Positions 1,482 through 24,978 are shown, counted from the first letter of the stretch. The stretch: 32,134 nt of DNA from Solirubrobacterales bacterium (GCA_036513995.1 DATBXZ010000139.1:1-32134); one strand, 5' to 3'. Made by a program: numbers and translations. Notes: a model not told the origin generated them from the letters alone.

Positions 1482-2963
1482 CTAGCCGGGGAGGAACTCA
1501 GGGACGTCGATGCCGAGCTCACCGGAGCGCTCGGGCGGGCGGCCGCGACCGCTTTCCTTGGTGCGGCGGATGGTCGGCTCGGTGGCGCGGCGCGGCGCGC
1601 TCGGGCGACCGTCGAAGCGGGTGGCGACGACGGTGACCCAGATCTGGTCGGAGAGCTCGTCGTCGACGTTGGCGCCGAAGATGATGTTGGCGTCGGGGTG
1701 GGCGGCCTCGCCGACCACCTTGGCCGCCTCGCTGACCTCGACCAGCGAGAGGTCGGAGCCACCGGTGATCGAGAGCAGGATCGAGCGGGCGCCCTCCATC
1801 GAGGTCTCCAGCAGCGGCGAGGAGATCGCTTTCTCGGCGGCGAGGATGGCGCGCTCGTTGCCGTGCGCCATGCCGATCCCGAGCAGGGCCCGGCCGGCGT
1901 CAGACATGATCGTCCGCACGTCGGCGAAGTCGAGGTTGATCACGGCCGGCAGAGTCACCAGGTCGGAGATGCCCTGGACGCCCTGGCGCAGCACGTCGTC
2001 GGCGACCTGGAAGGCCTCGACCATCGAGGTCTGCTGGTCGAGCACCTCGAGCAGGCGGTCGTTGGGGACGACGATCAGGGTGTCGACCTCGGCGGCCAGC
2101 TCCTCGATGCCTTTCGCGGCCTGCGAGCCGCGCTTGTTGCCCTCGAAGGTGAAAGGCTTGGTGACGATGCCGACGGTCAGCGCGCCGACCTCGCGGGCGA
2201 GGCGGGCAATTACTGGGGCGGCCCCGGTACCTGTTCCGCCGCCCGCGCCGGCGGCGACGAAGACCATGTCGGAGCCCTTGAGCAGGCGCTTGATCTTGTC
2301 CTGCTCCTCGAAGGCGGAGCGGTGGCCGACCTCGGGGTCGGCGCCGGCGCCGAGGCCGCGGGTCTGCTCGTCGCCGATGTGGACGGTGACGTCGGCGACG
2401 CAGAGCTGCAGCGACTGAAGATCGGTGTTGACGGCCATGAACTCGACCCCGGGGATGCGGGCGTCGACCATGCGGTTGACCGCGTTGACGCCGGCACCGC
2501 CGACGCCGACGACTTTGATCACCGGCTGGTGCGGCTCGCCGCTGCCGGGCGGCTCGTAAGCCGGCTCTTCGCGCCCGTAACGCGGGTTGCTCACGGAGGG
2601 TTCCTCGCGGCGCTCGTAGCGCGGCTTCGGTTCCTCGGAGAAGACCCTCTTCAACCGCTCCGGCGGAGTCTCGGCAGGGGGATCTTCAGCTATAGGACCT
2701 TCGGAATCTTGGTCGTACAGAGGCGCCTCTGGCGTGGATGGGCGCTCCTCGCCCGCAGCCTGCGAGGACGAGGAGTGCTCGTCCGCGACAGGACCCGCGG
2801 CCTGAGGCTCCTGTGCCTCGGCCTCCTTCTTGGCCTCGGCGGGATCCTGGCGGCCGTACCTGGGCGCCTCGGGCGGATCGGCGGGAGCGTCCTCCGAAGT
2901 CGAGCGGAAGAGGTCGGAGAGGGGACCCTCGCGCATGCTTGCGCGCTTATTGCGTCGAGCCAT
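1482..2963 (-). CDS. ftsZ: cell division GTPase FtsZ with an N-terminal extension of about 147 aa
   Basis: Tubulin signature GGGTGTGAAPVIA, VIKVVGVGGAGVNAVNRM, T7-loop INLDFADVRTIM, and C-terminal peptide GIDVPEFLPG. Start chosen at ATG 2963..2961 (MARRNKRASMREGP...) because GAAGGAGG lies 9 nt upstream. The track ORF extends to 3041 but has no RBS there and would overlap the upstream gene by 95 nt. Confidence 0.93.
   Translation of the reverse strand: MARRNKRASMREGPLSDLFRSTSEDAPADPPEAPRYGRQDPAEAKKEAEAQEPQAAGPVADEHSSSSQAAGEERPSTPEAPLYDQDSEGPIAEDPPAETPPERLKRVFSEEPKPRYERREEPSVSNPRYGREEPAYEPPGSGEPHQPVIKVVGVGGAGVNAVNRMVDARIPGVEFMAVNTDLQSLQLCVADVTVHIGDEQTRGLGAGADPEVGHRSAFEEQDKIKRLLKGSDMVFVAAGAGGGTGTGAAPVIARLAREVGALTVGIVTKPFTFEGNKRGSQAAKGIEELAAEVDTLIVVPNDRLLEVLDQQTSMVEAFQVADDVLRQGVQGISDLVTLPAVINLDFADVRTIMSDAGRALLGIGMAHGNERAILAAEKAISSPLLETSMEGARSILLSITGGSDLSLVEVSEAAKVVGEAAHPDANIIFGANVDDELSDQIWVTVVATRFDGRPSAPRRATEPTIRRTKESGRGRPPERSGELGIDVPEFLPG
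2731..2790 (-). repeat. copy A of a 60-nt direct repeat (inside the ftsZ N-terminal extension)
   Basis: ggcgtggatgggcgctcctcgcccgcagcctgcgaggacgaggagtgctcgtccgcgaca matches 3905..3964 at 55/60 positions by hand alignment, in the same orientation. It encodes ADEHSSSSQAAGEERPSTPEA. Confidence 0.9.
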
Positions 2964-4110
2964 TCGCCAGAACCTCCTTCGCCAACTCCCGGTAGTAGTT
3001 CGCGGCGCTGCTGCCGGAATCGTACTTGAGGACGCTGGCACCCTTGACGGGGGCCTCGGCGAATTTGATCGCCTTGCGGATCCGGGACTTGAAGACGAGG
3101 TCGCCGAAGTTCTCTTCGAGGATTTCCACCGCCTCCTTGGCGTGGACGGTCCGCGTGTCCAGCATCGTCGGCAGGATGCCCTCGATCTTGACGTCGGGGT
3201 TGAGGTTCTCCTGGATCATCTTCAGCGTGTTCTGGAGCTGGACCAGCCCGCGCATCGAGAGATACTCGCACTGCACGGGGACGATCACTTTGTTCGACAC
3301 GGTGAGCGCGTTGATCGTCAGCAGGCCGAGGCTGGGCGGGGTGTCGATGCAGATGAAGTCGTACTCGCCGTCGACCTCTTTCAGCCCCTTCTCGAGCGAG
3401 CGCTCGCGGCCGATCTTGGTGCTCATCGCGATCTCGGCGCCGGCCAGGTCGATCGAGGCGACGGCGATGTCGATCTCGCGCTTGACGATGATCTCGCTGA
3501 TCGGCATGTCGTTGACGAGCACGTCGTAGAGGCTCTTTTCGACCTTGTCCGGATCGATTCCCTGGCTCATCGTCAGGTTGCCCTGCGGGTCGAGGTCGAT
3601 GCAGAGCACGCGGTAGCCGGACTCGGCGAAGGCGACGGCGAGGTTGAGTGTCGTGGTGGTCTTGGCCACCCCGCCCTTCTGGTTGGCGAAGGCGATCACG
3701 TCGGCGTGCTTGACCGGCAGCTCCGGCTCGGCGTGCAGCTCACGCGCGGCGTCCAACCTGCTCGGCGCGATCAAGTCCCTGGGCAGCATCCGCGCCGGCT
3801 CCTCGGGCTCGGCCTTGACCACGGGCGGTGCCGGCGCAGGGGCCGTGGCAACCTGCTCAACCGAAGCGGCCGGTCCCGAATCCTCTGGCCTCCCTCCCGC
3901 GGGTGGCGCGGATGGGTGCTCCTCGCCCGCAGCCGGCGAGGACGAGGAGTACTCGTCCGCGCCACCCGCGGGCCGGGGGCTCGATCCCTGAGATTCGGCG
4001 ACAGCCCGCTCGGGCACCGCTTCCTCCATGCGCTGGAGCTCTTCGACGATCGGGTGCTGCTCGTCGACCTGGATAGGGGCTGGCTTCGGCTTGCGGCTTA
4101 GAAATCCCAT
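2947..4110 (-). CDS. orphan ParA/Soj/MinD-family P-loop ATPase with a disordered N-terminal extension of about 135 aa
   Basis: Deviant Walker A FANQKGGVAKTTTTLNLA, then RVLCIDLDPQGNLT, DFICIDTPPSLGLLTINAL, VIVPVQCEYLSMRGL. The start is uncertain: ATG 4110 gives 387 aa, in-frame ATG 4029 gives 360 aa, and ATG 3789 gives 280 aa. High GC3 from about codon 13 onward, plus a peptide cassette shared with FtsZ, argue that most of the extension is translated. Confidence 0.85.
   Translation of the reverse strand: MGFLSRKPKPAPIQVDEQHPIVEELQRMEEAVPERAVAESQGSSPRPAGGADEYSSSSPAAGEEHPSAPPAGGRPEDSGPAASVEQVATAPAPAPPVVKAEPEEPARMLPRDLIAPSRLDAARELHAEPELPVKHADVIAFANQKGGVAKTTTTLNLAVAFAESGYRVLCIDLDPQGNLTMSQGIDPDKVEKSLYDVLVNDMPISEIIVKREIDIAVASIDLAGAEIAMSTKIGRERSLEKGLKEVDGEYDFICIDTPPSLGLLTINALTVSNKVIVPVQCEYLSMRGLVQLQNTLKMIQENLNPDVKIEGILPTMLDTRTVHAKEAVEILEENFGDLVFKSRIRKAIKFAEAPVKGASVLKYDSGSSAANYYRELAKEVLANGSTQ
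2973..2980 (-). promoter_or_regulatory. Shine-Dalgarno (GAAGGAGG) for ftsZ, embedded in the last codons of the upstream parA-like gene
   Basis: Minus-strand sequence reads ...GCGAAGGAGGTTCTGGCGAATGGCTCGACGCAATAA... The ATG of ftsZ sits 9 nt after GGAGG. The TAA stop of the parA-like gene (2949..2947) lies 14-17 nt inside ftsZ. Confidence 0.75.
3905..3964 (-). repeat. copy B of the 60-nt direct repeat (inside the parA-like N-terminal extension)
   Basis: ggcgcggatgggtgctcctcgcccgcagccggcgaggacgaggagtactcgtccgcgcca. It encodes ADEYSSSSPAAGEEHPSAPPA, which matches the FtsZ copy at 16/21 aa. The offset of 1174 nt equals the frame offset between the two genes, so both copies are read in the same relative frame. 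Confidence 0.9.
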
Positions 4111-5096: not shown

Positions 5097-6247
5097 TGCC
5101 CACGCTCGGCGACGTCCTCGACGGCAAGGAGATCTGCATCTGCGCCGGGTCGGGCGGGGTCGGCAAGACGACCACCTCGGCGGCAATCGCGACCGGGATG
5201 GCGGCCCAGGGGCTGAAGGTCTGCGTGCTGACGATCGACCCGGCCAAGCGGCTCGCCGACTCGCTCGGGCTGAAGGAGCTGGGCAACGAGGCGCGCCGGG
5301 TCGACCCGAAGCTGTTCGAGAAGCAGGGCGTGGAGATGAAGGGCGAGCTGTGGGCGATGATGCTCGACGCCAAGGCGACCTTCGACGAGCTGGTCGCGCG
5401 CCAGGCGCCGGACGAGGAGGCGCGCGACCGCGTCCTCGAAAACCGCATCTACCAGCAGATCTCCAGCGCCCTCGCCGGCTCCCAGGAGTACATGGCGATG
5501 GAGAAGCTGTTCGAGCTGCACACCGAGGGCGGGTTCGACCTGCTCGTCCTCGACACGCCGCCGACCCGCAACGCGCTCGACTTCCTCGACGCGCCGAAAC
5601 GGCTAACCCAGTTCATCGAGGGCAGATCGCTGCGGATGTTCATGAAGCCGACCGGGCTGGCGGCGAAGGTCGCCGGCCGCGGCGCCTCGGTCGCGCTGGG
5701 GATCTTCAAACGGATCGTCGGCTTCGACCTGCTGGCCGACCTGGCCGAGTTCTTCAACGCCTTCAGCGGCATGGTCGACGGCTTCCAGGCCCGGGCGAAA
5801 CGGGTGAACAAGCTGCTCGCCGACCCCGGCACCTGCTTCCTGGTCGTCTGCGGCCCCCAGGGCGAGCCGGTCGACGAGGCCGTCTACTTCCACCGCAAAC
5901 TGATCGAGGCGAAACTGCCCTTCGGCGGCGTCATCGTCAACAAGGTCCACTACCCGTCGGAGGAGCTGGCCGGCGAGCCGGCCGACCTGCCGGCGACCCT
6001 TACCGAGAAGCTCGGCGACGAGGACCTGGCGCAGCGGGTGGCGGCGAACTTCTCCGACTACCAGGCCCTGGCCGAGCGCGACGCCCGCAACATCGAGCGC
6101 CTGGCGACCGAGCTGCGCACCCGTGGCGTGATCCGGGTCCCCTACCTAGACGAGGACGTCCACGACCTCGCCGGCCTGGCCGAGATCAACCGCTACCTGT
6201 TCGCGACCGGCGAGGAGCGGGTGGCGATGGCGGCGGGCCGGGCCTAG
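5096..6247 (+). CDS. ArsA/Get3-like P-loop ATPase (second of the pair, divergent switch II)
   Basis: MPTLGDVLDGKEICICAGSGGVGKTTTSAAIATG, TIDPAKRLADSLG, LLVLDTPPTRNALDFLDAP. ATG 5096 overlaps the upstream stop. The first 309 codons of the 692-aa track ORF (4169..6247) are a shadow frame over the first ATPase. Confidence 0.85.
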   Translation: MPTLGDVLDGKEICICAGSGGVGKTTTSAAIATGMAAQGLKVCVLTIDPAKRLADSLGLKELGNEARRVDPKLFEKQGVEMKGELWAMMLDAKATFDELVARQAPDEEARDRVLENRIYQQISSALAGSQEYMAMEKLFELHTEGGFDLLVLDTPPTRNALDFLDAPKRLTQFIEGRSLRMFMKPTGLAAKVAGRGASVALGIFKRIVGFDLLADLAEFFNAFSGMVDGFQARAKRVNKLLADPGTCFLVVCGPQGEPVDEAVYFHRKLIEAKLPFGGVIVNKVHYPSEELAGEPADLPATLTEKLGDEDLAQRVAANFSDYQALAERDARNIERLATELRTRGVIRVPYLDEDVHDLAGLAEINRYLFATGEERVAMAAGRA

Positions 6248-7941
6248 CTGGCGCGGCTGTCGGGGTCGCCGTAGTGCGCGTAGTCGAACTCGAGGTGGCT
6301 GACCTCCCAGTCGGCGTCCTCGGGGACCGGAAAGAGATGGCGCACGCGAGGAGTGTCGATGCGCTCGCGGTGTTCGATGTCGCGCTCGCTGGCGGCGGGC
6401 CACTCGAGCGAGTCGCCGCGGCGCTCGTCTGAGACCTCCTCGAGCCACGGCGTCGCCGTGATCTTGATCTCGTCTTCGGCCGGGATCGGCTCCATGATGC
6501 GGGTCTCCTGCTCCATGAACTCCTCCTCGGTCGATGCGATTTCGATTGGCTCGGGGCGCGCGACGGGCTGCGGAAGCTGTTCGACGCGGAACTCTGGGGG
6601 CTTCGCGATCGGCTCGGGCGGGCGGATCGCCTCGACGGGCTCGGGCGGCACGACGGACTCGATGGCGGCCTCGATCTCCTCGGCGGCTGTGAAGGCGATC
6701 TCGGAGTCGCCGCCTTCCAGGCCGGTGACGATCAGAGTCTCGTCGGCGGTGGCGTTGAGGTCGTTGCCGAGCTCGCCGAGAGCGGCCTGCAGCAGCAGCC
6801 TGCGGACCCCATCCTCGGCCCAGCCGGCCAGGCGCACGCCGTTCTCCAGCGAGCGGCCGTTCATCAGAGCGCGCTCGAGCTCGAGCGTGTCCTCGATCTT
6901 TTCGCGGGCCTCGATCCGGTCCAGCGAGTCGTCGGAGATCAGCGCCGCGGCGCGCATCGGCAGCGAGGCGCCGACCGGGCCGTGGCCCTCGAGCACCGCT
7001 CGCAGAGCCAAAAGGTGGTCGCTGAGCCCGTCGAGCGCGCTCTCGCGCTCGCAGCCCATCTCGAAGCGGCCGACCGCCCAGGTGAGGGCGCTGTCGGGGT
7101 CGGGACGGGCCTCCAGCGTGCCGGCCAGCTCGACCAGCTCGCCTGCCTCCTCCTCGCTGAGTCGGTAGCCACCGGGGCGGGTCGCGGGGGCGCCGGTGGC
7201 GATCCGCCGCCAGCAGTCCTCGCCGGTCGGGGCGAAGGCGAAGGGGCCGAGCCCGATGCCACCGCCTTTGAAGAGCCTCATCACGCTGATCAGCTCGCGC
7301 AGCTGGTTGAGGGCAGCCTCGGCGCCTTCCTCCTCGTGCTGCTCGGCGACGGCGAGGTACTGCGGCTCCCAGGAAGCGCGCCCCATGCCCTCGCTGCGCA
7401 TCGCGTCGATCGGGGCGTCGATCGCGTCGGAGCGGACCACACGCACCCCGTGCGGCAGTTGCAGCCGGGCGATCGACATCCGCAGGCCGACCACGGGGAC
7501 GATCACCACCTCGGCGTCGTCGGCGCCGCGCGCTTCGGCATCGAGCATCGAGAGCGCGCTGTCGAGCCGCGCCCGGTCGAGCGAGAACTCGGTCGACCCC
7601 TCCCAAAGCGCGGAAATGAAGACGGTGAGCATCCGTTCCGCCCGCTCGCCCGGGTCGGCGGGGACGGACTCGCCGCGCTCCTCCAGGTAGGCGGAGGCGA
7701 CGCCGGCCTCGATCGCGGCCTCGCGGGCGGGGCCGAAGCTGGGCAGGGAGCGGAGCTCCTGGGCGCGTTCCTCGACGAAGCGCGAGGTCAGCGGCACGTA
7801 GCTGTAGAAGGCCGAGTCGTCGCCGCTCTCGGCGGAGACGTCGAAGGGAATCTGGTCGCCGCTGGCGACGAGAGAGCTGAAGCGCGTGGCGGCCTCGGTG
7901 GCCAGCCGCTTCAGCGCTTCGTTGAGGAGGAAATCACGCAC
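6244..7941 (-). CDS. hypothetical protein, 565 aa, acidic, with a Pro/Glu-rich C-terminal third
   Basis: This is the only frame here with balanced amino-acid composition; the competing frames are Arg/Gly/Pro-rich shadow frames. GTG start at 7941 has GGAAG about 8 nt upstream. I recognised no family motif. The C-terminal part contains PPEPVEAIRPPEPIAKPPEF...PQPVARPEPIEI and Trp/acidic motifs. Confidence 0.7.
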   Translation of the reverse strand: MRDFLLNEALKRLATEAATRFSSLVASGDQIPFDVSAESGDDSAFYSYVPLTSRFVEERAQELRSLPSFGPAREAAIEAGVASAYLEERGESVPADPGERAERMLTVFISALWEGSTEFSLDRARLDSALSMLDAEARGADDAEVVIVPVVGLRMSIARLQLPHGVRVVRSDAIDAPIDAMRSEGMGRASWEPQYLAVAEQHEEEGAEAALNQLRELISVMRLFKGGGIGLGPFAFAPTGEDCWRRIATGAPATRPGGYRLSEEEAGELVELAGTLEARPDPDSALTWAVGRFEMGCERESALDGLSDHLLALRAVLEGHGPVGASLPMRAAALISDDSLDRIEAREKIEDTLELERALMNGRSLENGVRLAGWAEDGVRRLLLQAALGELGNDLNATADETLIVTGLEGGDSEIAFTAAEEIEAAIESVVPPEPVEAIRPPEPIAKPPEFRVEQLPQPVARPEPIEIASTEEEFMEQETRIMEPIPAEDEIKITATPWLEEVSDERRGDSLEWPAASERDIEHRERIDTPRVRHLFPVPEDADWEVSHLEFDYAHYGDPDSRAS

Positions 7942-20185: not shown

Positions 20186-21367
20186 TCAGGTACCGGGGAC
20201 GTTGTAGACGGGAGGCGGGGTGCTCTCGCCGCCGTTGTAAGAGGGAGGCGCAGAGCCGGCTTCGGCAAAGGAGCCCGCCTGGGGGTCGCCGGGACCGGAG
20301 CCGAGCAGTCGCTTCAGCTCCTCCGGAACCGAGGCCCTCTGCTCGGCGACGGCGCGGGTGATCTGCCCGGAGCGGGCCAGGCGGACGAGGTCGGCATCCA
20401 TCGTCTGCATGCCCACCGCTCCCGAGGTCTGCACCGCCGCATAGATCTGATGCGTCTTGCCCTCGCGGATCAGGTTGCGGATCGCCGGCGTCGGGATCAG
20501 AACCTCGCAGGCAACGACCCGGCCCACGCCGTCGGCGGTCGGCACCAGCTGCTGGGTGACAATGCCCTGCAGGGCAATCGAGAGCTGGGTCCTGACCTGG
20601 GCCTGCTGCTCGGCCGGGAAGACGTCGATGATGCGGTCGACCGTCTGCGCGGTCGACTGGGTGTGCAGGGTGGCGAAGACGAGGTGGCCGGTCTCGGCCG
20701 CGGTCAGCGCGGTCGCGATCGTCTCCTTGTCGCGCATCTCGCCGACCAGGATCACGTCGGGGTCCTCTCGCAGGGCGGCGCGCAAACCGAGCGCGAAGTC
20801 CTCAGCGTCGGAGCCGATCTCACGCTGGTTGACGATCGAGCCTTTGTGCTGGTGCAGGAACTCGATCGGGTCCTCGATCGTGAGGATGTGGTCGTTCTTC
20901 TCGCTGTTGATCACGTCGATCATCGCCGCCAGGGTCGTGCTCTTGCCGGAGCCGGTCGGGCCGGTGACGAGGACGAAGCCACGCGGTTTCTGGGTCAGCT
21001 CGCGCAGCACCTGGGGCACCTTCAGCGAGTCGAGATGGGGAATCTGCTGAGGCACCAGGCGGAAAGCGGCACTGACCGAGCCGCGCTGCAGGAAGCAGTT
21101 GACGCGGAAGCGGGCAACGCCGGGGATCGCGTAGGCGAAGTCGAGCTGTTTGTGGTTCTCGAACCGTTTGCGCTGGTCGTCGTTGAGGATGCCGTAGACA
21201 GTGTCGCGCGTCATCTGCCCGGTCAGCACCGGGAACCCCTCCATCGGGGTGATCCGCCCCTTGTCCCTCATCGCGGGCGGGAACCCGGCGGTCAGGTGGA
21301 CGTCGGAGGCATTCAGTTCGACCATGCGACCGAGGACGCCGGCGAAATCGAAGTCAAGCGGTGACAC
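20186..21367 (-). CDS. pilT: twitching-motility retraction ATPase PilT with a C-terminal tail of about 45 aa
   Basis: Walker A VTGPTGSGKSTTLAAM, ILTIEDPIEF, DVILVGEMRD, ETGHLVFATLHT, and the PilT-specific PAIRNLIREGK motif. GTG start at 21367 overlaps the pilB end by 14 nt. Confidence 0.92.
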   Translation of the reverse strand: MSPLDFDFAGVLGRMVELNASDVHLTAGFPPAMRDKGRITPMEGFPVLTGQMTRDTVYGILNDDQRKRFENHKQLDFAYAIPGVARFRVNCFLQRGSVSAAFRLVPQQIPHLDSLKVPQVLRELTQKPRGFVLVTGPTGSGKSTTLAAMIDVINSEKNDHILTIEDPIEFLHQHKGSIVNQREIGSDAEDFALGLRAALREDPDVILVGEMRDKETIATALTAAETGHLVFATLHTQSTAQTVDRIIDVFPAEQQAQVRTQLSIALQGIVTQQLVPTADGVGRVVACEVLIPTPAIRNLIREGKTHQIYAAVQTSGAVGMQTMDADLVRLARSGQITRAVAEQRASVPEELKRLLGSGPGDPQAGSFAEAGSAPPSYNGGESTPPPVYNVPGT

Positions 21368-23168
21368 GGAGCACCTCCTCGAGGCTGGTCTGCCCCTCGC
21401 GAACCTTCTCGATGCCGGCCTCGCGCAGGGTGACCATCCCCTCTTCGCGAGCGAGGGTGGCGATGTCGCTCTCTGAGGCGTGGCTTACGGTCATCTCTTT
21501 GAGGCGTTCGGTCAAGCTCATCACGGAGTAGATGCCGATCCGGCCGCGGTAGCCGCCGTGTCCGCAACGCGCGCATCCGACCGGCTGGTACCCCTCTATG
21601 TCGCCGTCCACCTCTACTCCTGCTTCGGCAACCGAAGCTGCAGGGATGCGGAGGGGCTCTTTGCAGCTCGAGCAGAGTTTGCGGGCGAGGCGCTGGGCGA
21701 CGACACAATCGACTGCGGAGGCGGTGAGGAAGGACTCGATTCCCATCTCGTTGAGGCGGGCGATCGCCCCCGGCGCATCGTTGGTGTGCAGCGTGCTCAG
21801 CATCATGTGGCCGGTCAGTGCCGCCTCGATCGCGATCCGCGCCGTCTCCGCGTCGCGGATCTCGCCGACCATGACGATGTCGGGGTCGGCACGCAGGACC
21901 GAGCGCAGCCCACGGGCGAAGTCGAGCCCCGCCTTGCGGTTGACGTTCATCTGGCTGATGCCGGGGATCCGGTACTCGACCGGGTCCTCGATCGTGATGA
22001 TCTTCTTCTCGACCTGGTTCATCTCCGCAAGTGCCGCGTAGAGCGTCGTCGACTTGCCGGAGCCGGTGGGACCGGTGACGAGGACCGCGCCGTAAGCGCT
22101 GCCAAAGGCCTTTTCGAAGCGAGCGCGAGCTTCGCCCTCCATTCCGAGGTCGTCGAGCGTCCGCTCGGCGTTGCTTTCGTCGAGGATCCGGATCGTCCCG
22201 CCCTCGCCGCGCTGAGTCGGCAGGGTGGTCACCCGCAGATCGACGCGGCGATCCTCGACGCTGACGCTGACGCGGCCGTCCTGCGGCACCCGTTTCTCGG
22301 CAATGTCGAGCTCACTCATGATCTTCAGGCGGGAGACGACGGCATTGACCATCCGGCGGGGAATGTGGGCTGCCTCTCTCAGCACTCCGTCGACCCTGAA
22401 GCGAACCCGGAGATCGTCCTCTTCGGGCTCCAGATGGATGTCCGAGGCTCCCTCGGAGACGGCCTGCGCGAGGATGCTGTAGACGAGCTTGATCACCGGC
22501 GCGTCCTCGGCTCCCGCCTGCATTTCCGTCGGGTCAAGGGTGTCGGCATCCGTTTCGGCGCCGTGCTCCTCGATGATCGCGTCCGCGGCAGCACTCTGCA
22601 GAGTGCCGAGCCGGGAGAGCAGCGACTCGATGTCGTCTTCGGCGGCAACGGCGATCCGGCAATCGAGCCCCGTGGCCAGCCTGACGTCGTTGACGACGAG
22701 GACATTGGCCGGGTCGACCGCCGCGACGAGGAGCGTCCGGGCGTCGACATAGCCGACCGGTACGGCTTTGTAGCGGCGGGCCATGGCGACCGGGAAGAGC
22801 GCCGAAGCCCCAAGATCGACTTGGTAGATCCCAAGGTCGACGTGGTCGAGGCCGTAGCGCTCCGCGACCGCGCGCGAGTACTGATCGGTGGTGATCTGAC
22901 CCTGCTCGAGCAGCAGCCCCTCAGGCGTCCGACCGGCGATCGGGCCCGCCTCGATTGCCGCCTCGACGCTCTCCTGACTCGAGAAGCCGAGTTCGACCAA
23001 GACATCGGTGATCAGCCCCCGCGAGTGGCCGCGGTGCAGAGGCGAAGTCAGCCCGGGCACAGAGGGCTCGGGCACAACCGCCATCGCGACCCCCTCACCG
23101 TAGCCGCCGTCGTCCTCGTAGCCGGCGACGGCTCCGACGCGAGGCGGGTATGGATCGGACAGGCTCAT
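21354..23168 (-). CDS. pilB: type IV pilus assembly (extension) ATPase PilB (GspE family)
   Basis: 604 aa. VTGPTGSGKSTTLYAAL, ITIEDPVEYRIPG, tetracysteine region CSSCK...CARCGHGGYRGRIGIYSVM, and a GspE N-terminal domain (LLLEQGQITTDQYSRAVAERYGL). Confidence 0.93.
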   Translation of the reverse strand: MSLSDPYPPRVGAVAGYEDDGGYGEGVAMAVVPEPSVPGLTSPLHRGHSRGLITDVLVELGFSSQESVEAAIEAGPIAGRTPEGLLLEQGQITTDQYSRAVAERYGLDHVDLGIYQVDLGASALFPVAMARRYKAVPVGYVDARTLLVAAVDPANVLVVNDVRLATGLDCRIAVAAEDDIESLLSRLGTLQSAAADAIIEEHGAETDADTLDPTEMQAGAEDAPVIKLVYSILAQAVSEGASDIHLEPEEDDLRVRFRVDGVLREAAHIPRRMVNAVVSRLKIMSELDIAEKRVPQDGRVSVSVEDRRVDLRVTTLPTQRGEGGTIRILDESNAERTLDDLGMEGEARARFEKAFGSAYGAVLVTGPTGSGKSTTLYAALAEMNQVEKKIITIEDPVEYRIPGISQMNVNRKAGLDFARGLRSVLRADPDIVMVGEIRDAETARIAIEAALTGHMMLSTLHTNDAPGAIARLNEMGIESFLTASAVDCVVAQRLARKLCSSCKEPLRIPAASVAEAGVEVDGDIEGYQPVGCARCGHGGYRGRIGIYSVMSLTERLKEMTVSHASESDIATLAREEGMVTLREAGIEKVREGQTSLEEVLRVTA

Positions 23169-23170
23169 GC

Positions 23171-23806
23171 TCAGCCGGGGTAGTAGGTCGCAGATGGACC
23201 GTCGTACCGCGCATCGCGCACTGCCTGTTCCATGCTCTGCGGGCTCTGGTAACCGTAGATAACGCTAGCCTGCGGATTGCCGTCGCTGAGTGAGCGCGGG
23301 CGCACCGTGATCAGCGCCGGAACCCGCTGCACTTCGACCGCCAGCGTCACCGCGGCATAACGGGCTATCTGCGAAACCGGCACGACGAAGACGGCAACAT
23401 CGCCAAGCGCGTTCAGACGGGGAACGGAACGCTTGACGAGGCGATCGTCGATGCCGCCGTCGTGGACGACGAGGAGGACGACGGTCTTGCCGGAGTCGTA
23501 AGCCTCGGCCACCGGATGCGGCAGCGGCGGCGCGGGAATCGAGGCGGCAACCGAGGCGGCCGAGGCTTCGCTGGCGGCGGCTTCGATCGCGCCTTCGACA
23601 GCACCTTCAACCGCTTCTCCCGGCGTGGCGCCGACGGCGGTTCCGGTGGCTTCGGTGCCGGCGACGGCGACCGTTGCTTCGGTCGACGCGGCTTCTTCGC
23701 TTTCTTCGCCACCGCCCATGTTCATCAACATGAAGCCCGCGACCAGGAGAAGAATGACGATCAGCCCAACCTGGTACTTCGGATCGCTGTTGATCTTGTC
23801 CCTCAT
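23171..23806 (-). CDS. hypothetical membrane-anchored protein (211 aa) between the pilT paralog and pilB
   Basis: ATGA overlap with the upstream gene and a 2-nt gap to pilB. One TM segment (VGLIVILLLVAGFMLMNM), an Ala/Glu/Thr-rich linker, and a C-terminal alpha/beta domain of about 110 aa (GKTVVLLVVHDGGIDD...VAVFVVPVSQIARYAAV...VPALITVRP). The strand order resembles a thioredoxin-like fold, but there is no CxxC. Confidence 0.7.
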   Translation of the reverse strand: MRDKINSDPKYQVGLIVILLLVAGFMLMNMGGGEESEEAASTEATVAVAGTEATGTAVGATPGEAVEGAVEGAIEAAASEASAASVAASIPAPPLPHPVAEAYDSGKTVVLLVVHDGGIDDRLVKRSVPRLNALGDVAVFVVPVSQIARYAAVTLAVEVQRVPALITVRPRSLSDGNPQASVIYGYQSPQSMEQAVRDARYDGPSATYYPG

Positions 23807-24921
23807 GACGCCACCGGGGCCTCTCCGAGCTGCTCGATGCCGCTCGCGCGCTGGCCGCCGGCGGCCAGCATCAGTTTGAAGTCGTGGGGGCTGGAGGCGT
23901 AGTCCATCGCCGTCTCCTCGCTGATCCGGCCTTCCATCGCGTAGGTGAGGAGGGCCTGGTCGAAGGTGCGCATGCCGTAGTACTCGCCCTCGGAGATGAC
24001 CTCGGTGATCTTGCCCGTTTCCTCCGGGTTGAGGATCAGGTCCTGGACGCGGCCGGTGACGACGAGCACCTCGGAGGCGGGGACGCGGCCCTCGCCGGTG
24101 ATGTCCGGCACCAGGCGCTGGGCAATCGCCCCCCTCAGGGTCGAGGCCAGCATCACCCTCGCCTGCTGCTGCAGATGGGGCGGGAAGAAGTCGATGATGC
24201 GGTTGATCGTCTCGGTCGCGTCCAGGGTGTGGACCGTGGAGAGGACGAGGTGGCCGGTCTCAGCCGCCGAGAGGGCGGTGCGGACGGTCTCCTCGTCGCG
24301 CATCTCGCCGACCAGGATGATGTCGGGGTCCTGGCGCAGGACCCGTTTCATCGCCCGCCCGAAGCCCTTCGTGTCGGAGCCGACTTCGCGCTGGTTGACG
24401 ATCGAGCGTTTGTCCGGGTGCAGGTACTCGATCGGGTCCTCGAGCGTGATGATGTGGCGCGCCCGGGTCTGGTTGATGTGATCGATCATCGCCGCCAGGG
24501 TCGTGCTCTTGCCCGAGCCGGTGGTGCCGGTGACGAGGATGATCCCCCGCTGCTCCTCGGCCAGGGTGCGGACGACCTCGGGCAAACCGAGGTCGTCGAT
24601 CGAGCGGATCGTGAAGGGAATCGCGCGGCAGACGATCGAGATCGAGCCGCGCTGCTTGAAGCAGTTGACGCGGAAGCGGGAGACGCCCTCCAGCGCGTAG
24701 GCGAAGTCGGCCTCGCCGTCCTCCTCGAATTCAGCCTGCGAGCGCGCCTCGGCGATCGCCTTGAAGGCCTGCTCGGTGTCCTCGGCACTGAGCTCGCCGA
24801 ACCCCTCGAGGGGGATCAGTTCGCCGTGCATGCGAGCGACCGGAGGGGAATCGACCTTCACATGAAGGTCGGATCCCTCCCGCTCGACGAGGGTGCGCAG
24901 GGCTGAGTCGATGTCGAACAT
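23803..24921 (-). CDS. PilT-family hexameric ATPase paralog (PilU-like; lacks the AIRNLIRE motif)
   Basis: VTGTTGSGKSTTLAAMIDHI, ITLEDPIEYLH, DIILVGEMRD, ETGHLVLSTVHT. The position that holds AIRNLIRE in the other copy reads RVQDLILNPEETGK here. Confidence 0.88.
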   Translation of the reverse strand: MFDIDSALRTLVEREGSDLHVKVDSPPVARMHGELIPLEGFGELSAEDTEQAFKAIAEARSQAEFEEDGEADFAYALEGVSRFRVNCFKQRGSISIVCRAIPFTIRSIDDLGLPEVVRTLAEEQRGIILVTGTTGSGKSTTLAAMIDHINQTRARHIITLEDPIEYLHPDKRSIVNQREVGSDTKGFGRAMKRVLRQDPDIILVGEMRDEETVRTALSAAETGHLVLSTVHTLDATETINRIIDFFPPHLQQQARVMLASTLRGAIAQRLVPDITGEGRVPASEVLVVTGRVQDLILNPEETGKITEVISEGEYYGMRTFDQALLTYAMEGRISEETAMDYASSPHDFKLMLAAGGQRASGIEQLGEAPVAS

Positions 24922-24978
24922 CCCGACCTATATCGGCCGGAATGTTCGTCCACTTGACCCAGCAAATAATCGTGCGGG

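Follow-up and report, generated by a model that had tools for sequence, protein, structure and literature searches.

A dispersed in-frame hairpin repeat of Solirubrobacterales resides in the N-terminal extensions of FtsZ and an adjacent ParA-like ATPase

The DNA analyzed here is a 32,134-nt stretch from a Solirubrobacterales bacterium (GCA_036513995.1, DATBXZ010000139.1:1-32134; referred to below as the window), in which the gene for a MipZ-type ParA-like ATPase lies directly upstream of ftsZ on the minus strand, and its 3' end overlaps the start of ftsZ by 17 nt (2947-2963). The products of both genes carry long N-terminal extensions ahead of their Pfam domains, and each extension contains one copy of a short, GC-rich cassette (Table 1). 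The two 60-nt stretches in which the copies were first recognized belong to a dispersed, hairpin-forming repeat of the Solirubrobacterales that is read in frame with its host genes, is conserved as nucleic acid, and evolves in concert within genomes.

Table 1. Genes and cassette copies at the ftsZ/parA-like locus (positions in the window)
Feature	Position	Strand	Remarks
ftsZ, ~148-aa N-terminal extension	1482..2963	-	Pfam Tubulin aa 149-308, FtsZ_C aa 357-450
parA-like ATPase (MipZ-type), ~135-aa N-terminal extension	2947..4110	-	Pfam AAA_31/CbiA from aa 137
Copy A, hairpin cassette	2730..2801	-	FtsZ N-terminal extension, ...AAGPVADEHSSSSQAAGEERPSTP followed by EAP
Copy B, hairpin cassette	3896..3972	-	ParA-like N-terminal extension, RPAGGADEYSSSSPAAGEEHPSAPPAGG
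61-nt part of copy A matching copy B	2730..2790	-	56/61 identity
61-nt part of copy B matching copy A	3904..3964	-	56/61 identity

The extents of the two proteins were assessed from their homologues. In a preliminary description of the locus, a ParA-like start at ATG 3789 was considered, which would leave copy B untranslated. Among the 120 ParA-like homologues listed, most of which span 96-100% of the query, the N-terminal peptide MGFLSRKPKPAP...EELQRMEEAVPER that follows ATG 4110 is kept in the majority, and the few homologues without it were called at later starts; when loci were gathered by means of the ATPase domain only, 79 of 80 had the same peptide. This conservation supports the start at 4110, rather than that at 3789, and places copy B within the predicted translated region. 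In FtsZ, the N-terminal peptide M[AS]RRxKRASMREGPL.DLFRST is likewise kept in relatives. The conserved N-terminal peptides (MGFLSRKPKPAP.. in the ParA-like protein and MARRNKRASMREGPLSDLFRST in FtsZ) precede disordered linkers.

The stretches at 2731-2790 and 3905-3964 are identical at 55 of 60 nt, have the same orientation, and are in frame with their respective genes, all of which agrees with the preliminary description; the match extends by one further base to a 61-nt direct repeat, the two copies being offset by 1174 nt. The encoded peptides, ADEHSSSSQAAGEERPSTPEA (FtsZ aa 60-80) and ADEYSSSSPAAGEEHPSAPPA (ParA-like aa 51-71), are identical at 16 of 21 residues, and the sequences flanking both copies at equal offset are unrelated, again as first reported. 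Over the 20 codons common to the two copies there are five nonsynonymous differences (V/G, H/Y, Q/P, R/H, and T/A) and no synonymous ones, and both copies use the rare codons GCT and CCA; the lack of synonymous differences together with the common rare codons is a signature of common descent at the DNA level and not of peptide conservation. Two of the five differences form a compensatory pair in which C-G is replaced by T-A (CAC/CGC in ftsZ versus TAC/CAC in parA), a third converts a C.A mismatch into C-G in the hairpin stem, and the remaining two are located in the apical loop and in the bulge, respectively. A degenerate 52-mer derived from both copies, searched with up to three mismatches, matches exactly two sites in the window and none in each of 100 dinucleotide-preserving shuffles of it, and a covariance model detected no third copy in the 32 kb.

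A repeat search of the window identified the cassette as an imperfect palindrome. Copy B is complete and nearly perfectly palindromic, with inverted-repeat arms at 3888-3928 and 3940-3980; it is matched by the covariance model at 3888-3979 (+ strand, 72.5 bits), and its predicted folding energy is -65.1 kcal/mol (z -6.6) for the mRNA strand and -77.5 kcal/mol (z -10.5) for the complementary strand. Copy A, matched at 2714-2808 (+ strand, 77.5 bits), is partly decayed, since the alignment indicates that about 9 nt of the 3' outer-stem arm (CCCGCGGxx) are deleted; its values are -42.9 kcal/mol (z -1.3) for the mRNA strand and -56.2 kcal/mol (z -4.7) for the complement. Copy B also lacks the asymmetric CCTGT bulge of the family, the left arm, CCCGCGGGTGGCGCGGA, and the right arm being reverse complements without any mismatch; they look as if one had been retemplated on the other, and the encoded peptide reads PAGGA instead of PAGPVA.

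The full unit of the family is ~80 nt long (up to ~115 nt with flanks) and about 75% GC. On the sense strand, the termini CCGCGGGT ... ACCCGCGG pair with each other to form an outer stem; inward of this stem lie the CCTGT bulge opposite CC, a long GC-rich second stem, the CTCCTCG/CGAGGAG pairing, and a small apical stem-loop. RNAalifold predicted 28 pairs from a 127-copy alignment, 12 of them with compensatory changes. For a 33-pair structure, 97.0% of the cells are paired, compared with 91.4% in column shuffles (none of 500 reached 97.0%) and 39-50% when the partners are slid against each other, and double-sided changes are found in 193 cells at 13 pairs; for instance, one pair occurs as AU 57, GC 33, and CG 26, and another as CG 92, GC 20, UA 6, and AU 3. 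The terminal inverted repeats covary and are kept across subfamilies. Sister subfamilies retain the termini and the bulge, whereas their inner stems are wholly different and self-complementary (58 to 97 nt), and the peptides that they encode (DDGGALRAGSSSTPPSS, EVDSPAHPPESSTS, AAGDPPPPAVAKASSGAVPP, AAGDPPSPATAQETVPP, and SDTSSSPTGEDPASS) are unrelated. These subfamilies are found at the same ParA and FtsZ positions (e.g., DDGGALRAGSSSTPPSS, EVDSPAHPPESSTS, and AAGDPPSPATAQETVPP).

Constraint on the cassette was estimated from metagenome loci retrieved by the ParA ATPase domain only. Between species, four-fold degenerate third positions are 0.925 identical in family-A cassettes versus 0.69 in the adjacent ATPase domain, the amino-acid identity of which is 94%. 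Identity within the element is 0.82, 0.89, and 0.78 at the three codon positions and thus shows no codon periodicity. The high four-fold identity and the lack of periodicity indicate that the constraint acts on nucleotide sequence and structure and not on the peptide; the conserved entity is a nucleic-acid hairpin.

The cassette is widely dispersed. Its 31-nt core, CTCCTCGTCCTCGCNNGCTGCGGGCGAGGAG, is present at at least 119 loci in an exact scan of one genome per species; the core matches listed are nearly all from Solirubrobacterales metagenome-assembled genomes (MAGs), often with several loci per genome, and at least 7 copies reside on chromosome OY970074.1. In 980 kb of fetched loci we counted 162 full copies; the termini signature, sought in these loci, added to the core-bearing copies 37 complete elements whose inner stems differ, most of which lie in the hosts listed below. 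Hosts were assigned by masking the cassette, clustering the host reading frames, and confirming the families with Pfam; the choice of frame by third-position GC content (GC3) alone is noisy in a high-GC genome, and identification of host domains was used instead. Among the matches listed, the hosts are ribosomal proteins S1 (24 copies), S9 (23), S17 (15), L19 (12), L10 (7), S5 (6), L5 (5), and S2 (1), together with the ParA-like ATPase (9), FtsZ (9), and NusA (8); GMP synthase (GuaA) was identified by Pfam as an additional host. In total, at least 12 unrelated protein families and one intergenic site carry the cassette, and three copies may occur in a single operon (S17, L5, S5). The preliminary description had raised the question of restriction to the two genes of the window, and our genome searches answer it in the negative; occurrence at many unrelated coding loci and at an intergenic site counts, on that description's own terms, against the protein motif it had proposed.

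Within proteins, the element is located in acidic low-complexity N- or C-terminal tails or linkers and always outside Pfam domains. The frame reading AGPV...PPAG is open in about 160 of the 162 copies, and the orientation is always sense to the host; host open reading frames (ORFs) with Pfam-confirmed domains keep their frame through the element, and the predicted peptide is rich in Pro, Ser, Ala, and Glu. All six frames of the consensus are open, and one antisense frame is equally acidic but never used. The ParA homologues are all from Solirubrobacterales-type assemblies, and most of them carry ..AGPVA[DE]xxSSSSQAAGEEPSxxPPAG.. in an otherwise hypervariable extension. A search with a 56-aa double-cassette peptide, which gave 15 candidates by word index and is uninformative on absence, also placed the cassette in unrelated short proteins and provided the first hint of other hosts. 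The orientation of the copies in OY970074.1 is compatible with co-orientation with replication; the assemblies lack a common start point.

Occupancy of the sites varies. Orthologous ParA and FtsZ extensions display all combinations, including no cassette, a cassette in one gene only, and different subfamilies; many orthologues have no cassette, and filled and empty orthologous sites both occur. In losses, the body of the element is removed and the left end, PAGPV, remains, and arrays in which a full element follows a solo left end are common. Sixteen genomes have a cassette both in the ParA-like gene and in ftsZ. Within each of them, the two copies belong to one subfamily and usually to one subvariant; mean identity is 0.878 within a genome versus 0.724 between genomes, none of 5000 permutations reaching the within-genome value, and in 8 of the 16, no other member of a 69-element set is closer to the ParA copy than the FtsZ copy is. 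Copies within a genome are thus more alike than orthologues are, which is the mark of concerted evolution. Duplication or gene conversion at the DNA level, one of the interpretations offered in the preliminary description, is supported by these values and by the absence of synonymous differences and the shared rare codons in the window, whereas another, a docking motif or phosphorylation patch, is not (see below). The flanks are generally not conserved, but a right-flank motif, GA.GAGGCG.CTGAGGC, is common across host families and pairs with left GCCTCAGG in some copies; these common and partly pairing flanks indicate that the copied unit is somewhat longer than the hairpin and that homology in the tails could seed exchange.

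As to what maintains the repeat, we lean, though not strongly, toward a self-maintaining palindromic element, analogous to the Rickettsia palindromic elements (RPEs), that would be spread and homogenized by DNA-level copying and tolerated where its translation is innocuous. Copies in one genome would be kept alike by ectopic gene conversion or recopying, which would be seeded by the conserved termini and the common flanks and probably aided by the hairpin. Whole subfamilies would replace one another over time, copies would disappear when the hairpin is deleted and a solo left end stays behind, and the repeat would be tolerated only where the encoded disordered peptide (AGPV...PPAG) is harmless.

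Several observations weigh against this explanation. No target-site duplication was found at any boundary offset, the flanks matching in at most 27 of 124 copies for k=3 and 15 of 124 for k=4-5; within the fetched loci, no transposase was associated with the element; and no copies were detected in plasmids or phages (BLAST) or in IMG/VR collections (pattern scans). The element keeps to a narrow range of hosts, in which many species have it at orthologous positions, and roughly 14 independent sites all have the same orientation, although the antisense frame is open and acidic. In addition, synonymous-site conservation between species exceeds the neutral level, which implies purifying selection on the sequence, for which gene conversion alone is insufficient; its basis must be either a function in the host or selection on the copying of the element itself. 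Finally, the two strands are not equivalent. Among non-Watson-Crick stem cells, 322 are A.C or C.A when read on the mRNA strand, equivalent to G.U on its complement, and only 12 are G.U on the mRNA strand; in 123 of 128 copies, the fold of the complementary strand is the better one (mean -63.3 versus -53.6 kcal/mol), an asymmetry that a pure DNA-palindrome model does not predict. The single match to the termini pattern in IMG/VR (L203) forms no hairpin and is due to chance.

The other subfamilies show the same folding advantage of the complementary strand. Part of the A.C excess, perhaps at pair 19-69, may come from the avoidance of hydrophobic NTN codons in disordered tails. As its full cause, however, this avoidance fails at pairs 28-60, where a Ser codon would pair, and 26-62, where the preferred CCG would pair, and it does not account for the synonymous GCA at 23-65; in all three, a codon that restores pairing would be synonymous or do no harm. 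The relevant folded form could be the complementary strand, as either RNA or single-stranded DNA; alternatively, the mRNA hairpin could be selectively weakened. By eye, no conserved promoter-like flank for antisense transcription was found, and no promoter scan was run.

A second explanation, which we hold to be possible rather than probable, is that the cassette is a cis-acting RNA tag in the coding sequences of growth-related mRNAs, through which these would be coregulated by a common trans-acting factor. The factor would recognize the conserved base, namely the outer stem and bulge, and candidates include an RNase III-type double-stranded RNA nuclease, an RNA-binding protein, and a complementary RNA; the disordered tails would host the element only because a structured insert of 25-30 codons is tolerated there. 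The coherence of the host set (translation, transcription elongation, division, and GMP synthesis) speaks for such a tag, as do the invariable sense orientation to the attached gene, which extends to the intergenic copy after a UspA-like stop in two species, the covariation of the stems, the above-neutral conservation of synonymous sites, and a conserved base with a variable distal stem, as in many protein-binding hairpins. There is also a precedent, since Correia/CREE elements of Neisseria and ERIC elements of enterobacteria are cotranscribed with host genes and can be cleaved in the transcripts by RNase III or RNase E, with altered expression (PMC10969869). The mRNA-sense strand, however, is the one that folds worse, its mismatches being A.C and not G.U, and in the FtsZ copy of the window it folds no better than shuffled sequence. 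The element is absent or replaced by another subfamily in many ParA/FtsZ orthologues, which would be odd for an essential regulatory site; the three copies in the S17, L5, S5 operon mean that there is not one tag per operon; and by eye, no promoter scan having been run, no conserved promoter-like flank was noticed that would help it by an antisense transcript. No Rfam family matches: at permissive E-values, the best models are microRNA precursors at 18-22 bits against gathering thresholds of 89-99, and they are chance matches.

A broader form of the tag is more speculative, and we regard it as doubtful. In small-genome soil Actinomycetota, a single factor would read the conserved base of the hairpin as a shared tag in, or opposite, the mRNAs of growth genes, namely most ribosomal-protein operons, nusA, ftsZ, the parA-like gene, and guaA. 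The whole would constitute either a regulon or a system of directed gene conversion within coding sequence. Candidates for the factor are a nuclease, a protein or complementary RNA that binds the tag, a hairpin-specific recombinase, and a reverse transcriptase-based copier, and copies would be uniform within each genome because all of them must match it.

We consider it very unlikely that the peptide ADEHSSSSQAAGEE.. acts, as proposed in the preliminary description, as a phosphorylation patch or a short linear motif by which FtsZ and the ParA-like ATPase dock onto each other or onto one partner. Short linear motifs are conserved as amino acids, and their synonymous sites are free. Like the motifs of FtsZ and of ParA/MinD partners, the cassette is a short conserved stretch in hypervariable disordered extensions; it sits in two adjacent, functionally linked proteins, contains a run of Ser, is in frame in both genes, and keeps one frame in all copies. 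Its pattern of conservation is, however, the opposite one, in which conservation is higher at synonymous sites than at amino-acid-changing sites and than at synonymous sites of the neighboring domain, and the peptide is interchangeable. Conservation follows the hairpin and not the codons; the peptide recurs in the 12 or more unrelated families, is replaced at the same positions by unrelated subfamily peptides or is missing altogether in many orthologues, and differs between the copies of the window only at nonsynonymous sites. Chance or compositional convergence of two low-complexity, very GC-rich regions (67% over the window), or a one-off local duplication between ftsZ and parA, is practically negligible as an explanation, given that none of the 100 shuffles produced a match, the identical 31-nt core recurs at 119 or more loci elsewhere, and hairpin z-scores reach -4.7 to -10.5.

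Returning to the self-maintaining palindromic element, its closest counterpart is found in Rickettsia. Rickettsia genomes are AT-rich, and homology of the cassette to RPE families is unlikely on lineage and base composition; the likeness is one of analogy and not of family membership. RPEs are ~150 bp long, confined to Rickettsia, and fall into several families; they lie in frame in unrelated protein-coding genes, including essential ones, and are translated with the host protein, the insertions being reportedly compatible with its three-dimensional conformation (PMC10969869). Both kinds of element are short, dispersed, and palindromic, occur in many copies per genome and in frame in unrelated genes, and comprise coexisting families. 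Unlike RPEs, the cassette is ~80 nt long, about 75% GC, and found in free-living soil Solirubrobacterales; it occurs only in disordered tails, and only in a small group of proteins that serve translation, transcription, and division, and it combines a fixed frame and orientation with stem covariation and homogenization within genomes. In-frame palindromic repeats are thus already known from Rickettsia, and the Solirubrobacterales family differs from them in lineage, base composition, host restriction, and frame and orientation; it is further set apart by its conserved base, interchangeable distal stems, covariation, and concerted evolution. No description of the element was found in the literature searched.

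Other hairpin-forming elements resemble the cassette in part. MITEs (miniature transposable elements with inverted repeats) such as Correia/CREE and ERIC share with it hairpin-forming terminal inverted repeats and presence/absence polymorphism, but Correia and ERIC elements are mostly intergenic, have target-site duplications, and have been traced to insertion sequence (IS) families, whereas for the cassette no target-site duplication was found and no parent IS is known, and nearly all of its copies are coding. Repetitive extragenic palindromes (REPs) are extragenic by definition and are tied to a cognate Y1 (HUH) transposase gene (RAYT). With REP/REPIN sequences the cassette has in common GC-rich hairpins that are homogeneous within and different between genomes, vertical inheritance, and a within-genome population; it is intragenic, however, at all but one orthologous site (L057/L113), and no cognate RAYT gene was seen in the fetched loci. 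Integron attC sites, which form tandem cassette arrays next to intI and have RYYYAAC/GTTRRRY ends, are likewise imperfect palindromes of variable length in which the ends and a folded shape with extrahelical bases are conserved and one strand is the functional folded form; the ends of the present cassette are instead CCGCGGGT/ACCCGCGG, and it is scattered in single copies among housekeeping genes. Membership in the MITEs, REPs, or attC sites is not claimed, because defining features of these were not found.

If the present account is correct, an abundant soil order carries a structured ~80-nt repeat in the genes for a dozen of the most conserved proteins, and the apparent "conserved motif" of their tails should not be annotated as a protein motif. 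Ribosomal-protein markers would then share identical 31-mers, which can mislead assembly, read mapping, marker alignment, and binning. The repeat would also represent one route by which disordered tails of ribosomal proteins are built and remodeled, and in-frame palindromic repeats, known from Rickettsia, would gain a second independent case, making it testable whether such elements are selfish passengers or are used by the host.

Further observations concern individual copies and hosts. In this lineage, S1, S2, S5, S9, S17, L5, L10, and L19 are extended by 60 to 150 aa or more of acidic low-complexity sequence, and parts of the ribosomal-protein tails resemble decayed or partial cassettes, with repeated AGPVAE.. 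left ends (loci L002-L120); these tails may be built in part from the cassette repeat. The sole noncoding site (L057 4252-4346 and L113 3095-3189) is orthologous in two species, and the element there exactly spans the interval from a UspA-like stop, to which it is in sense orientation, to the stop of a convergent S8 peptidase gene. Two 84-nt copies, one in FtsZ (L054) and one at L064, lack one base, so that essential genes are frameshifted; both are from MFD MAG assemblies and may be assembly or sequencing errors in a GC-rich hairpin or real frameshifts. In two JBLMYD01 contigs labeled Chloroflexota MAG238 (L014 and L053), the element lies in the same kind of ribosomal-protein tail, which suggests misbinned contigs rather than an element in another phylum. 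A conserved stretch, CCGGCGGTTCCTGTCACACTCTGGAGCCGTAATG, is located just ahead of an ORF that starts MLRTIANAFSVADIRKKL and is secY-like by eye (L017, L021, L029, L030, L034, and L036), and likewise in L061, L073, L100, L106, L115, and L118; it resembles the left end of the element, GGGTCCTGTC, lacks the right arm, and may be a remnant of the element or a coincidence.

The gene neighborhood of the locus is stable. In relatives (L001, L121, and L122), the order is kept as two ArsA-like genes (divergent), the ParA-like gene, ftsZ, and a gamma-glutamyltranspeptidase (GGT) gene. In other bacteria, ftsZ is usually surrounded by genes of the cell-wall and division cluster; here it is paired with a ParA/MipZ-type ATPase gene, and such genes do not flank it. 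Adjoining the ArsA-like pair, a 565-aa ORF (6244-7941, minus strand) shows a strong coding signal (GC3 0.92) and matches no Pfam family, and its position is kept in the same three relatives. Farther away, the minus strand of 20186-24927 contains three type II/IV secretion ATPase genes (T2SSE) that are paralogues and adjoin the PilC and PilM genes; the larger direct-repeat families of the window (D1, D2, D6, D8, D10, and D11) stem from these paralogues, which are unrelated to the cassette.

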